From a virus: a DNA stretch of 64,000 nt. Shown here in pieces: positions 11,947-34,756 of this stretch (position 1 is its first letter; every line of letters starts with the position of its first letter). Position numbers and translations under genes: made by a program. The notes below the pieces were generated by a model. That model was not told the origin of the DNA. It saw nothing but the letters and a program-made list of their open reading frames with translations, and did no database searches. The DNA is taken from IMG/VR virus record IMGVR_UViG_3300044634_002252, positions 1 through 64,000 of that record. The stretch is one strand, 5' to 3'.

Positions 11947-12522
11947 TCAAGGCTTTTTGGGAAACTGAGAGATCCAATAAACAGTCTTATCAGTCATTCC
12001 TGCCCAGGCTGACCAGTTCTTTCCACCATCAGACATCTGATATGCAATCTCAGCATTACGAACTGGATCAAATAGATCCTTGTTTGATTCTAGCTCATAC
12101 TTTTCTAGCCTAGCAGGACCTAGACTGCCAATCATATTAATCTGGAATAGTCCATAGGAGTTGTCCCCCGTATCACTGTTTTTATTATGTGATCTTGGCC
12201 TGCCAGTAGATTCCTTCATGGCTACCGCCCAAGCCTGGACCAATGCCTCTCCATGAAATCCAACGCTAGATAACATATCCCTCAAATCTACTGGAGAAAG
12301 CTGTTCATTTCTGGCATAGTCTTTTTTTTCAACCTCAACAATCTTGACACTCTCAAGCCTTGTAAAGCTAGGTGATACAGCCTCTGACGATATGCTCAAG
12401 TTTTGAGTATTGCTAGTATTATCTAGCATGGTTAGGCTAGTGATAACCATAAAAGCTATTCCAAGCAAAGAGTACGTGATAATTTTTTTAACAGGCTTAT
12501 CGCCTTCTACTTTATTAAACAT
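11947..12522 (-). CDS. membrane-anchored lysozyme-like/lytic transglycosylase protein
   Basis: N-terminal TM; AVAMKESTG, SYGLFQIN, DPVRNA, NWSAW; start set by leaderless promoter. Confidence 0.85.
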   Translation of the reverse strand: MFNKVEGDKPVKKIITYSLLGIAFMVITSLTMLDNTSNTQNLSISSEAVSPSFTRLESVKIVEVEKKDYARNEQLSPVDLRDMLSSVGFHGEALVQAWAVAMKESTGRPRSHNKNSDTGDNSYGLFQINMIGSLGPARLEKYELESNKDLFDPVRNAEIAYQMSDGGKNWSAWAGMTDKTVYWISQFPKKP

Positions 12523-15954: not shown

Positions 15955-15955
15955 C

Positions 15956-31430: not shown

Positions 31431-32181
31431 GACTTACCTCTGGAGATCTCTTATTAAATATGCCAAAATTCTTTTTTCTCCAAGCAAATTTTTTATAATA
31501 TCCATAAAGCATTGATCGCCTATTTTCAGCCATAAGTTCATGCTTATCTAGCTCTTCGTCAGTATCTATAACCTTTGATTCCCAGTCTTCTCTTTTAAAT
31601 GGAATTATTTGAAATATTGGCGTACCCTTGGGAATCACACCTCTAAAATTTCTCTTAAGAAAAAATGCAGTAAAGACTGGAAGTCCCCAAATATCAGACT
31701 CTACAATTCCAGATAGGGTATAAAACGGAAGGTCATGCCTGTTCATTGGTTGTGTAACTAGTACAGAGTACCCTGGAGGAGTTTCATAATACCAGTTCAT
31801 CCTCCAGCCATAGTGAATTGGATGGCAATTATCTGGAACTGGAACCTCTATCGTTGGCCTAGTGTCGACAATCATTACATCGCCCTTCCAGGACAAGACT
31901 GGGACTCCGTTTTCATCCAAGTCTACATACAGATCATCCTCTAAAACATACTGGTATCCAGCGGTTAGCGCATCAAAGAAGGGCATGCACATCTTTGTAG
32001 CTACCTGCGCTCCATCTGTTCCTAAAGAGTTTTGGGGGCTTAGGGTTTTATCACTATTTGATTTTTCAAACTTTGCCAAGCTTCTATACCATTCTGGTAC
32101 ATGCTTTGTAGCTGGTTGTGGTGCCGTTAGCCGATCGCCAGGCATTCTAAAAGATGGAACAAAATTAATTATGTTAGACAT
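31414..32181 (-). CDS. DUF6065-like / dUTPase-like jelly-roll protein
   Basis: PEWY, TKMCMPFFDA, TPPGYS, GIVESD, KGTPIFQIIPFKR. Confidence 0.7.
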   Translation of the reverse strand: MSNIINFVPSFRMPGDRLTAPQPATKHVPEWYRSLAKFEKSNSDKTLSPQNSLGTDGAQVATKMCMPFFDALTAGYQYVLEDDLYVDLDENGVPVLSWKGDVMIVDTRPTIEVPVPDNCHPIHYGWRMNWYYETPPGYSVLVTQPMNRHDLPFYTLSGIVESDIWGLPVFTAFFLKRNFRGVIPKGTPIFQIIPFKREDWESKVIDTDEELDKHELMAENRRSMLYGYYKKFAWRKKNFGIFNKRSPEVSHDDND

Positions 32182-32903
32182 TAATTATATTCTTTCTTTG
32201 ACCTAAAGATAAGTTTATATCCATTTGCAAACATACTACGCAGCTTAAGTCTCTGGTTTGATAAAGTTTTCTTTGAGTCTTCGGCATCAACGACCTCGGA
32301 CTCCCAGCTATCTCTTTTAACTGGGATGACTTGTACTAGAGGAGTGCCACGTTTGATTACACCCTTAAATCCCTTTTCTACAATAAAAGATAGGTGACCT
32401 TCTGTAATAAATTTATCAGAGTCGACAAAAGCTGGTATTGCAGTTAATGGATAGGTGTCTCTGTGAACTGGATTTAAAAATAGGGTGCTATAGCCAGGCT
32501 CTGTCTTCATGTACCAGAAAGGCATTACCCTAAATAATGTTTCGTGTTGACGACTTTTATCTATTGGGTATTCGTCATATTGCTGTTTTTCATGGGAAGA
32601 AAACATATCTGCTTGGAATTGTTTAATTGCAATTGGTATAGACCATGTTAACTTTTCTGGATCAGTAGCGTCTAAATAAACATCGCATGGCATAGTGATC
32701 ATATAGCCAGCTGTCATTATATCAAACACTGGCATACATCTTTTAACAGTTGAAGTAGAGTAGCCTTTTGGAAGAGTCTCGGAATCATTTACTGTGCCCT
32801 TTTGCTTTTTGTACCAATCTGGAACAAACTTTACTGCTGGCTCAGGCGGGTCTGTGTATGCGGAGGTGCCTTCACTATGTTGATAAAATCTAATCTTTGG
32901 CAT
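32181..32903 (-). CDS. DUF6065-like protein, tandem paralog
   Basis: PDWY, TVKRCMPVFD, TEPGYS, RGTPLVQVIPVKR. Confidence 0.7.
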   Translation of the reverse strand: MPKIRFYQHSEGTSAYTDPPEPAVKFVPDWYKKQKGTVNDSETLPKGYSTSTVKRCMPVFDIMTAGYMITMPCDVYLDATDPEKLTWSIPIAIKQFQADMFSSHEKQQYDEYPIDKSRQHETLFRVMPFWYMKTEPGYSTLFLNPVHRDTYPLTAIPAFVDSDKFITEGHLSFIVEKGFKGVIKRGTPLVQVIPVKRDSWESEVVDAEDSKKTLSNQRLKLRSMFANGYKLIFRSKKEYN

Positions 32904-33561
32904 AAAACTCCTCAATTCCTAAATCTATTATAGCATTCCTGGGAATTATCATATCGTAAATAGGCGATAGTCTTTTGACTTTTCCAAACTCATTATCTAT
33001 CATATGACTGCCTTCTTTTTTAAATCTAAAAGGTATCATAAATGGCTCTAAATACCTTGTGTCTTCAGGAATTTTAATGCAATGTCTTGTAGTTTCAAAT
33101 ATCTTAAATGCAGACTCTTCTTCTGGAACTACAAATCTAACCTCACAGCTTGAATCGATTATCCAAGGAGTATAGGCCACAAAAGTATCTTCAAAGCACT
33201 CCGAGTCTAGGCCTGCAACATATGACGATCTATAAAATTGTCGCAACCATGGCCTATCTAAAAACTTTCTCTCTTTATTATTTACTAAAATAAAAACTTC
33301 TGCATGACTATATTGCCTCAGTCTAATAAAATTATCATCAATGCCGATTAGCTTTGGTGCTGGATAAAGAGCCTCTGCGTATTTATTAATTGGCTTTATT
33401 ACGCTGTTCTTGTATTTTTCCAATGACTTTATTTTTTGAAAACTTAGCCACTTTTCTGGAACTCTAGAATTAAAAGAAATTTCTACAAAGCTTGGATCAT
33501 ATGTTGACTTCCATATTCCAAAATCATAGTCAGTATTATTAAGTATTTCTGGTTTATCCAT
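32890..33561 (-). CDS. hypothetical protein, possibly a divergent third paralog
   Basis: PEKW, PWIID, SPIYDM. Confidence 0.55.
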   Translation of the reverse strand: MDKPEILNNTDYDFGIWKSTYDPSFVEISFNSRVPEKWLSFQKIKSLEKYKNSVIKPINKYAEALYPAPKLIGIDDNFIRLRQYSHAEVFILVNNKERKFLDRPWLRQFYRSSYVAGLDSECFEDTFVAYTPWIIDSSCEVRFVVPEEESAFKIFETTRHCIKIPEDTRYLEPFMIPFRFKKEGSHMIDNEFGKVKRLSPIYDMIIPRNAIIDLGIEEFYAKD

Positions 33562-34267
33562 TAGGGCCTGCAATTAAAACAGATATGAAATCTGACTGGT
33601 TAATCTTCATGCTAAGAACTTTATCAATAACGGCAGACACGCTATCTCTGACTATTGTTTGATCTATCATGGTGACATTAATTCCAATTCCTACGGGATG
33701 ATGCTTTCCAAAAACAGTTTGAATATCTTTTAAAATTTCTATGATTTTAGAGTTGTCGTCTTTTCTATTTTTAACTAAAAATAAATATGAAGTATGACTT
33801 TGCTTAACCCAATCAAACTTTTCTAGCCTGCCTTTTGAAGACGAACCTGGAACATCATCTTCGAATATAAAAGACTTGCCACCTACTCCAAGTATAGCAG
33901 GCAAGGCTGAAATAATTGATGGTCCTGGAATTACCTCAACTGGAAGGCCTTGCTCATGAGCAATAACAATTATTTTGCCACCTGGATCTGCTACTCCTGC
34001 CATCCCATCGTCTGGGCAGATCAAAACATTTTTGTTGTTTTTTAGTGCTTGAATAACTTCCAAAATTATTGGAACCTCAGACTCTTCGTCCATTGGGGCG
34101 TAGTACTCAATTATAGCGCCAGACGGAACAATAGCTAAGTCTTTGCAAAGATTGTCAAACATATATCTATTTTCTACTAAAACAATGTCACAATCTTTTA
34201 TCGCAGATATCATCCTAAGACCAACGTCTAGCCTATTGCCAATGTCTACTCCGCCAACGATTAACAT
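33554..34267 (-). CDS. RsmI-like SAM-dependent methyltransferase (tetrapyrrole-methylase fold)
   Basis: IGNRLD..RM....D..LVE, DDGMAGVADPG, VIPGPS. Confidence 0.75.
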   Translation of the reverse strand: MLIVGGVDIGNRLDVGLRMISAIKDCDIVLVENRYMFDNLCKDLAIVPSGAIIEYYAPMDEESEVPIILEVIQALKNNKNVLICPDDGMAGVADPGGKIIVIAHEQGLPVEVIPGPSIISALPAILGVGGKSFIFEDDVPGSSSKGRLEKFDWVKQSHTSYLFLVKNRKDDNSKIIEILKDIQTVFGKHHPVGIGINVTMIDQTIVRDSVSAVIDKVLSMKINQSDFISVLIAGPNG

Positions 34268-34432: not shown

Positions 34433-34506
34433 CGACCCTGACCAGACTTGAACTGGCGACCTCCTCCGTGACAGGGAGGCGCTCTAACCAACTGAGCTAC
34501 AGGGCC
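34433..34506 (-). tRNA. tRNA-Asp(GTC)
   Basis: Cloverleaf, CCTCC-CTGTCAC-GGAGG. Confidence 0.92.
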
Positions 34507-34560
34507 CTTGTCCACTTTTATCCCTTCTCTCTGCGGGAGTGGTGTAGACTAAACCATTAG
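34507..34560 (-). ncRNA. inter-tRNA pseudoknot element, copy B
   Basis: UGGU/ACCA, UCCC/GGGA, pseudoknot GUCUAC/GUGGAC; covaries with copy A. Confidence 0.65.
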
Positions 34561-34631
34561 AGCGAATGGAGAGAATCGAACTCTCACCGTCAGTTTGGAA
34601 GACTGAGGCACTACCACTATGCAACATTCGC
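34561..34631 (-). tRNA. tRNA-Gly(TCC)
   Basis: Cloverleaf, TCAGT-CTTCCAA-ACTGA. Confidence 0.9.
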
Positions 34632-34684
34632 ATTGCCCATTTTTATCCTTATACCCTTAGGAGTGGTATGGGCCACACCATTAG
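34632..34684 (-). ncRNA. inter-tRNA pseudoknot element, copy A
   Basis: UGGU/ACCA, UCCU/AGGA, pseudoknot GCCCAU/AUGGGC. Confidence 0.65.
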
Positions 34685-34756
34685 CTCCCCTCCGTGGATT
34701 CGAACCACGAACCGACGAGTTAACAGCTCGTTGCTCTGCCATTGAGCTAGAGAGGA
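34685..34756 (-). tRNA. tRNA-Asn(GTT)
   Basis: Cloverleaf, ACGAG-CTGTTAA-CTCGT. Confidence 0.92.

Follow-up and report, generated by a model that had tools for sequence, protein, structure and literature searches.

A family of short structured RNAs positioned directly behind tRNA genes in the arrays of uncultured phages

The locus examined here is a tRNA gene array in an uncultured virus genome, the IMG/VR record IMGVR_UViG_3300044634_002252 (90,139 bases, estimated to be 79% complete), and the subject of the analysis is an RNA element of about 50 nt that fills two of the gaps between its tRNA genes. Throughout, the window is the whole stretch of 64,000 nucleotides that was analyzed, corresponding to positions 1-64,000 of the record. 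Based on ARAGORN and on matches to the Rfam tRNA model, the tRNA genes on the minus strand of the window are ordered Asn(GUU), Gly(UCC), Asp(GUC), Glu and Thr. The gap between the Asn and Gly genes is 53 nt (34684-34632) and that between the Gly and Asp genes is 54 nt (34560-34507), both read on the minus strand, and the two spacers share the layout C-UAA-UGGU-NNN-(6 nt)-ACCA-C-(4 nt)-loop-(4 nt)-UAAAA-(6 nt)-ANN. An earlier reading of this DNA, made from the sequence only, had set out both spacers letter by letter, and its letters match the window sequence exactly. As that sequence-only reading also stated, the first base of each copy follows the discriminator base of the upstream tRNA and the last base precedes the next tRNA (ARAGORN, Rfam tRNA). 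The features are listed in Table 1.

The element is a selected, structured RNA, and two of its three helices are evident from compensatory sequence change. All covariation figures are based on an alignment of 42 distinct element sequences (alignment A2), in which the proposed pairs are standard base pairs in 585 out of 585 cells. A 6-bp helix encloses a 4-bp hairpin, here called hairpin B. Compensatory changes on both sides were found at all six pairs of the 6-bp helix and at three of the four pairs of the hairpin. The covariation score is 0.527, compared with 0.274 +/- 0.015 for shuffles (none out of 500 reached the observed score), and sliding the partner strands by one to three columns gave scores of only 0.04-0.135. 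Within the window, the sequence-only reading had pointed to compensating changes between the two copies, and these are confirmed at positions 2 and 6 of the 6-bp helix and at position 4 of the hairpin stem. Across the 50 distinct elements collected in total, the long helix occurs in 10 versions and the hairpin stem in 8. Minimum-free-energy folding taken alone is unimpressive, with z-scores of -0.61 and -1.89 for the two copies; the case for the fold rests on covariation.

Conservation of the unpaired and joining strands is high, with approximately 20 of the ~50 positions invariant. The strands UGGU, ACCAC-U and A-UAAAA are identical in 42 out of 42 sequences. Three linkers had been described as invariant in the sequence-only reading; the single C after ACCA and the UAAAA strand are so in the family, whereas CUAA is constant only between the window copies. 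The first four nucleotides are CUAA in 44 of the 50 distinct elements, CUAU in three, CUGA in two and CUUA in one, with A, U or G at position 3 and A or U at position 4. The hairpin loops of the 50 elements fall into two classes, GGGUA or GAGAG/C. Loop 1, which separates UGGU from the 6-bp helix, is variable in sequence (GUG, UCC, UUA, UCA, UCG), and its length of 3 nt was fixed by the detection patterns. A reading of the element as a peptide gene was rejected: the AUG at nt 4 of copy 1 opens a frame of 11 codons, whereas in copy 2 a stop follows after only two.

The invariant strands UGGU and ACCA can close a third helix of 4 bp (S1), with which the element would form an H-type pseudoknot with a quasi-continuous 10-bp stack. 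In the predicted geometry, loop 1 would be 3 nt long, loop 2 would be absent and the A-rich loop 3 would carry the hairpin; the invariant A-rich strand could occupy the minor groove of the 4-bp helix. In alignment A2, none of the four S1 pairs varies, and S1 was unvarying even in a scan that left the letters of UGGU and ACCA free. Covariation therefore cannot test this helix. The sequence-only reading had proposed a covarying pseudoknot of ~50 nt; in this proposal the 6-bp helix and the hairpin stand, and the crossing helix is without covariation support. S1 is a possible helix based on the complementarity of its strands, on UGGU being the sole universal partner for ACCA, and on a fitting geometry. 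The GGU of the hairpin loop was considered as a universal partner for ACCA in its place and was rejected, being absent from 10 of the 50 loops.

Table 1 The two element copies and the adjoining tRNA genes, in window coordinates
Feature	Position	Strand	Basis
tRNA-Asn(GUU), discriminator G at 34685	34685-34756	minus	ARAGORN; Rfam tRNA, 64 bits
Element copy 1, 53 nt: C74 of tRNA-Asn, predicted pseudoknot element, tail AAU	34632-34684	minus	Model R1, 73.7 bits, E 2.5e-14
Copy 1, C right after the discriminator: encoded C74 of the tRNA, not element-specific	34684	minus	175 of 179 tRNA genes
Copy 1, UGGU (nt 5-8), proposed 5' strand of pseudoknot helix S1, complementary to ACCA	34677-34680	minus	Invariant, 42 of 42
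Copy 1, 6-bp helix 5' strand GCCCAU (nt 12-17)	34668-34673	minus	6 of 6 pairs covary family-wide
Copy 1, ACCAC (nt 18-22), with ACCA the proposed 3' strand of S1	34663-34667	minus	Invariant, 42 of 42
Copy 1, hairpin B: UCCU / 9-nt loop including GGGUA / AGGA (nt 23-39)	34646-34662	minus	3 of 4 pairs covary
Copy 1, UAAAA (nt 40-44), A-rich strand, putative minor-groove contact with S1	34641-34645	minus	Invariant, 42 of 42
Copy 1, 6-bp helix 3' strand AUGGGC (nt 45-50)	34635-34640	minus	Covariation
Copy 1, tail AAU, first A invariant in the family	34632-34634	minus	Alignment of the family
tRNA-Gly(UCC)	34561-34631	minus	ARAGORN; Rfam tRNA
Element copy 2, 54 nt: C74 of tRNA-Gly, UAA, UGGU, UUA, GUCUAC, ACCAC, UCCC / 10-nt loop / GGGA, UAAAA, GUGGAC, AAG	34507-34560	minus	Model R1, 63.6 bits, E 4.5e-12
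Copy 2, 6-bp helix 5' strand GUCUAC, partner at 34510-34515	34544-34549	minus	Folding and covariation
Copy 2, hairpin B: UCCC / GCAGAGAGAA / GGGA	34521-34538	minus	Folding and covariation
Copy 2, 6-bp helix 3' strand GUGGAC	34510-34515	minus	Folding and covariation
tRNA-Asp(GUC), directly after copy 2	34433-34506	minus	ARAGORN; Rfam tRNA

The two copies belong to a new RNA family, structured and ~50 nt in length, which is found in the tRNA arrays of a group of uncultured phages whose genomes measure about 100-116 kb. Including those in the window, we count 84 instances (50 distinct sequences) from 75 sources, all of them uncultured phage or metagenome contigs; the instances were pooled from the IMG/VR virus and metagenome collections, and some contigs may occur in both. 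With the first fixed pattern, 29 stretches were retrieved from IMG/VR, 16 of them true elements directly behind a tRNA and 13 chance matches. In each of the later scans, another part of the motif was left open. Leaving ACCACUCC free gave no new variant among the matches listed, and the looser viral scans gave mostly chance matches among those listed. One metagenome scan dispensed with the first 11 nt and yielded 59 stretches, 32 with complete (6/6) helix pairing; none of its true matches began inside the element, as a truncated form would. Among the matches listed for prokaryote genomes, 121 were re-examined (loci L368 onward), and those of the 121 with at least five of six helix pairs had no tRNA-like sequence upstream.

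We built a covariance model, R1, from alignment A2. It gives 47 matches at 62.7-75.1 bits in 42 out of 42 phage records, and the next best match scores 16.8 bits. Based on this gap, we conclude that genomes carry one to two copies, that there is no grey zone between members and non-members, and that the family is sharply defined. Neither of two Streptomyces phage records, BillNye and Blueeyedbeauty, has an R1 match at E <= 10. The RNA family is unpublished as far as full-text searches show: these searches, whose coverage excludes supplementary lists (for example, the descriptor and hits of the theta ribozymes discussed below), returned no published description of the motif.

The claim of the sequence-only reading that the element is tied to the 3' end of a tRNA extends to the family, with an identical junction in 79 out of 79 instances that have a called upstream tRNA. 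The gene in front of the element is tRNA-Asn in 64 instances, tRNA-Gly in nine and tRNA-Met(CAU) in six; two further instances (L338 and L359) follow an odd tRNA-like sequence and three are cut by the end of the contig. The element is thus found behind at least four kinds of tRNA, with G, U or A as discriminator. On the other side, the downstream tRNA begins 3-5 nt past the 3' strand of the 6-bp helix in 73 of the 84 instances, and three are contig-cut. The tails left between helix and tRNA (AAU, ACU, ACC, AAA and others) are similar to the 3-nt spacers that separate adjacent tRNAs (ACT, AAT, AAA, TAT, TCT), where these spacers are taken to begin one base past C74, which ARAGORN assigns to the tRNA.

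The C with which both copies open is part of this tRNA context. Among 179 distinct tRNA genes from the element-bearing loci and from a distant relative (L492, see below), 175 have a C after the discriminator, whatever comes next, and only three have CC. All seven tRNAs of the window carry this C (at 15955, 16029, 34282, 34355, 34432, 34560 and 34684). The sequence-only reading had likened CUAA to the J4/2 strand of the hepatitis delta virus (HDV) ribozyme with its catalytic C, a likeness that fails, the leading C being the encoded C74 of the tRNA. As this C is generic to the tRNAs, the element proper starts at U2 and the main argument for an HDV-like catalytic C is removed. The phage tRNA genes nearly all encode C74 but not C75-A76. 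Some neighboring tRNAs are parted by that C alone (Met-C-Leu and Glu-C-Thr), in which case RNase P alone would leave tRNA-N73-C74.

Comparison with known RNA families agrees with the sequence-only reading, in which the RNA was not recognized. When all 4227 Rfam 15 families were run with cmscan at E <= 10 on segments of 651 nt and 196 nt, no family matched the element. The sole minus-strand match to a spacer is a weak, chance-like one to the DUF2815 RNA (RF03084), at 17.3 bits compared with a gathering threshold of 41.2 (E 0.66-2.2), and it involves a different hairpin.

In sibling phages, the gap between tRNA-Gly and tRNA-Asp holds this element, a manA RNA, a 52-nt hairpin, 90 nt, or only 3 nt. 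Matches to manA (RF01745, 64.5-75.8 bits) were found in three of the 10 loci searched: L022 (12051-12235), L027 (4904-5088) and L019 (657-838). The manA RNA of L022 lies 7 nt after tRNA-Gly (11973-12043) and 1 nt before tRNA-Asp (12237-12310). The distant relative L492 was found via the adjoining gene for an RsmI-like methyltransferase (60% identity); its tRNA-Asn is followed by other hairpins and a weak tRNA-like sequence, and R1 has no match in L492 (best score 6.9 bits). The varied contents of the slot therefore point to the element being one of several structured cargoes, rather than to a general need for it in the maturation of tRNA-Asn or tRNA-Gly.

Further occupants of these arrays were seen in the same comparison. 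In L022 and L027, the manA RNA fills the Gly-Asp gap almost to the base, a tRNA-array context unlike its 5' untranslated region (UTR) context in cyanophages. It shares with the element the property of being a structured RNA between tRNA-Gly and tRNA-Asp in siblings (L022 and L027; manA was also found in L019), and differs in its length of about 185 nt, in its architecture and in having no sequence or model similarity to the element. As far as the excerpted source goes, the manA motif was described from T4-like cyanophages and marine metagenomes, mostly in 5' UTRs (Weinberg et al. 2010, PMC2864571). The slot of window copy 2 is occupied in L033, L048 and L057 by a different 52-nt hairpin element.

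Most of the sequencing runs in which the stretch is present are labeled as lake-water metagenomes, and the rest are freshwater, subsurface or unspecified. Full-length identity of the phage DnaE-type polymerase to those of Streptomyces phages of the Stanwilliamsviridae is 55-57%. Among 42 element-bearing phage records, of which only four are >=90% complete and most are fragments, we found no CCA-adding enzyme (PF01743, 0/42), no RNA ligase of PF09414 (0/42), which we take to be the Pfam family of the DRB0094 RNA ligase and used as a stand-in for it, and one RtcB (PF01139, 1/42). The sole RtcB case is a full-length RNA ligase (382 bits) at 31738-32835 of G012, the contig of L028.

We favor, at a probability of roughly 0.42, a model in which the element is a pseudoknot cassette punctuated by tRNAs and released by host tRNA-end nucleases, with the knot either fixing the upstream 3' end or persisting as a small RNA. 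The element would be transcribed within a polycistronic tRNA precursor and freed by host tRNA-end nucleases, either proteins or ribonucleoproteins. The 5' end of the element would come from an endonuclease acting where the upstream tRNA ends, and its 3' end from RNase P acting at the next tRNA. The compact knot would withstand exonucleases, and it could then set where the upstream tRNA 3' end is made or survive as a stable small RNA with a partner of its own. As such, the element would be one of several interchangeable structured cargoes of the arrays. We prefer this model because of the fold, the family, the punctuation by tRNAs, the cargo slot and the lack of ribozyme-style helper genes. Small RNAs linked to tRNAs and released by RNase Z and RNase P are known as eukaryotic or herpesviral cases with known products, and the element is like these passenger RNAs in lying exactly flush with the 3' end of a tRNA and, in most cases, with the 5' end of the next tRNA as well.

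Several points weigh against this model, all of whose processing steps we infer from sequence. In eight of the 84 instances, no tRNA is called within 110 nt downstream, and therefore RNase P cannot set the 3' end there. A stable knot right behind C74 would hinder, not help, 3'-to-5' trimming. The missing helper genes weigh little because the phage records are mostly fragments. The identical junction on at least four kinds of tRNA would also be predicted if the element were a self-cleaving maker of tRNA 3' ends. Finally, invariant positions (U2, U5-A21, C22, U23-A and UAAAA) cluster where S1, hairpin B and the tRNA strand would meet, and this cluster resembles an active site, or a site of specific binding, more than it does a passive block; readings in which the element is a ribozyme or binds a specific partner are thereby kept alive.

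The leading alternative, although we consider it unlikely, is a new small self-cleaving ribozyme. It would form the 3' end of the upstream tRNA, doing the job of a theta ribozyme with a different fold. Cleavage would occur between C74 and U2, or between nt 11 and nt 12 if the fold is a circularly permuted HDV ribozyme. The helix order fits such a permutation, with J4/2 mapped to C-U-N-W, P2 to UGGU/ACCA, P1 to the 6-bp helix, P3 to hairpin B and P4 to the tRNA acceptor arm. The junction, exact in all 79 cases regardless of the discriminator, fits ribozymes that cut at their own 5' edge, and many invariant unpaired nucleotides lie beside the tRNA end. However, no ribozyme family of Rfam 15, including the HDV-type, twister, pistol, hatchet, hammerhead, twister-sister and hairpin ribozyme models, matches the spacers at E <= 10. 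The proposed catalytic C is the generic C74, and positions 3-4 next to it vary. HDV-like ribozymes form a nested double pseudoknot with an L3/P1.1 pairing, and their P2 covaries freely, whereas the would-be P2 of the element is invariant. The sequence-only reading had noted that the L3/P1.1 consensus is missing; on inspection, no consistent complementarity between loop and tail was seen, 10 of 50 loops are without any GGU, and the tails are mostly AAU. The invariant UAAAA also stands where HDV has no linker, and the counts of CCA-adding and end-healing genes given above argue in the same direction.

Precedent for ribozymes at this position comes from the theta ribozymes, minimal HDV-like ribozymes that adjoin phage tRNAs (Kienbeck et al. 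2024, PMC10879173, as excerpted). The base rate for new self-cleaving motifs is low, at least in the excerpted text of PMC10085705, where none of 10 HRIMA motifs from a hairpin-ribozyme-based search cleaved. As of 2023, hammerhead and twister are the only self-cleaving ribozymes for which the same source lists a natural circular permutation. That the element represents a new ribozyme class, possibly a natural circular permutation of HDV, which would cut the precursor at or near the tRNA 3' end and replace a protein nuclease, is a doubtful proposition in our view.

Contigs assembled from RNA were also considered. Based on a run search on assembled contigs, RNA runs contain only 4-7% of the sampled words of the stretch; three RNA runs and one DNA run were aligned, as contigs. 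One run (X17) contains a single 112-nt RNA contig from a relative, with its 5' end at nt 12, the start of the 6-bp helix, and its 3' end at the discriminator of tRNA-Gly plus C. The 5' end coincides with the nt 11/nt 12 site that the permuted-HDV idea had predicted beforehand. As evidence of cleavage the contig was rejected, being one contig of a kind that cannot show ends. It was not counted because both ends lie at points of strain divergence (C, A or G at nt 11, and the position after C74), and a de Bruijn contig bounded by strain differences would look no different.

The theta ribozymes (PMC10879173) are the closest published counterpart. They are small pseudoknotted RNAs, as is predicted for the element, and like it they lie on Caudoviricetes contigs and begin at the 3' end of a tRNA gene without encoded CCA. 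In theta ribozymes, G1 opens P1 at the tRNA end, whereas in the element C74 is followed by an unpaired U-N-W and the first helix would start from nt 5. Theta ribozymes have the HDV helix order with the catalytic C in J4/2; the element has another strand order, an invariant 'P2' and an extra UAAAA. The theta phages are gut phages of Bacteroidota, whereas the element is found in lake phages, which among cultured phages are closest to those of Streptomyces. A gene for tRNA adenylyltransferase (CCA-adding) occurs in 20.6% of theta-ribozyme phage genomes and one annotated 'RNA ligase, DRB0094 family' in 54.5% (PMC10879173), an enrichment that is not seen in the element-bearing phages for the CCA-adding gene, nor likewise for PF09414.

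In an improbable alternative, the pseudoknotted element mimics a tRNA acceptor arm and would be a mini tRNA-like structure, in which the 6-bp helix stacked on UGGU/ACCA would imitate the acceptor/T stack and the invariant A the discriminator. RNase P would cut immediately 5' of the 6-bp helix, yielding a product that could be a decoy or a substrate for tRNA 3'-end enzymes. Viral tRNA-like structures have a pseudoknotted acceptor arm, in which a hairpin loop pairs with a 3'-proximal strand, and a short single-stranded tail. The predicted topology of the element is like that of these arms, all 42 aligned sequences have the unpaired A right 3' of the helix, and the tail is 3-5 nt long and reads ACC in seven of the 50 distinct elements. 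However, the second base of the tail is C in only 16 of 50, compared with 175 of 179 for C74 in the tRNAs. No Rfam tRNA or tRNA-like model matches the spacers, the stack would be 10 bp and not 12, no T-loop-like motif was seen, and mimicry leaves the invariant UGGU/ACCA and UAAAA unexplained.

We regard as more improbable still a ligand- or protein-sensing switch that would cage the upstream tRNA in an inactive, 3'-extended form, in the manner of riboswitch pseudoknots with an A-rich loop 3. In the preQ1-II riboswitch, a short loop 1 separates stem 1 from stem 2, loop 2 is missing and a hairpin is inserted in the long, A-rich loop 3; the predicted H-type topology of the element, with its hairpin embedded in loop 3 and its invariant A-tract, would be the same. 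tRNAs with GUN anticodons receive queuosine, and the neighboring Asn and Asp tRNAs are of this set, a link made weaker by the presence of the element behind Gly and Met tRNAs too. Loop 1 lines the pocket in such riboswitches, whereas that of the element is unconserved. The element also lies in a tRNA spacer and not in a 5' UTR, no expression platform is present, and no riboswitch model, preQ1-II included, matches at E <= 10. A feature of the DNA or a neutral one without RNA function, for example the scar of a recombination event, a mobile spacer or the target of a homing endonuclease, would suit one to two copies per genome that have moved between tRNA genes, and is hardly credible given compensatory changes that keep 100% pairing at 10 bp in 42 sequences, explicable only by selection on RNA structure.

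Structured RNAs placed exactly at tRNA 3' ends in phages were previously published only as the HDV-like theta ribozymes of gut phages. The element is a second solution, with a different fold, phage lineage and habitat, and with unusually clean covariation. If self-cleaving, it would be a new member of the short list of ribozyme classes or the first natural permuted HDV fold; if not, a compact RNA of this kind is still informative on how phages punctuate and mature their tRNA arrays. Slots of these arrays are shared with manA RNA and with further, unassigned RNAs. Other structured phage RNAs of unknown function, often near tRNA islands, are GOLLD and ROOL, which differ in being multimeric cages of hundreds of nt, unrelated to the element in sequence and size (PMC12286853, as excerpted).

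The neighborhood of the arrays has some additional recurring features. In the window, a gene of the TP_methylase family (RsmI-like; 33554-34267, minus strand; Pfam E 4e-17) starts 15 nt past tRNA-Thr, and this gene is kept beside the array in L490, L491 and L492. A conserved hairpin spacer of ~156-172 nt lies between tRNA-Asp and tRNA-Thr or the next tRNA in L011, L020, L022, L027 and L030, and in L492 (2664-2819). It has no match at Rfam gathering thresholds and may be another structured RNA. In L006, L011, L019, L025 and L071, a conserved two-hairpin sequence follows tRNA-Gly. Weak tRNA-like matches (42-46 bits) are located near such sequences, in L019 (846-913), L071 (297-365), L025 (2507-2574) and L492 (2104-2171). 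A near-identical odd tRNA-like sequence is labeled 'tRNA-???' by ARAGORN in L295 and L312, and its counterpart in L338 and L359 precedes the element.

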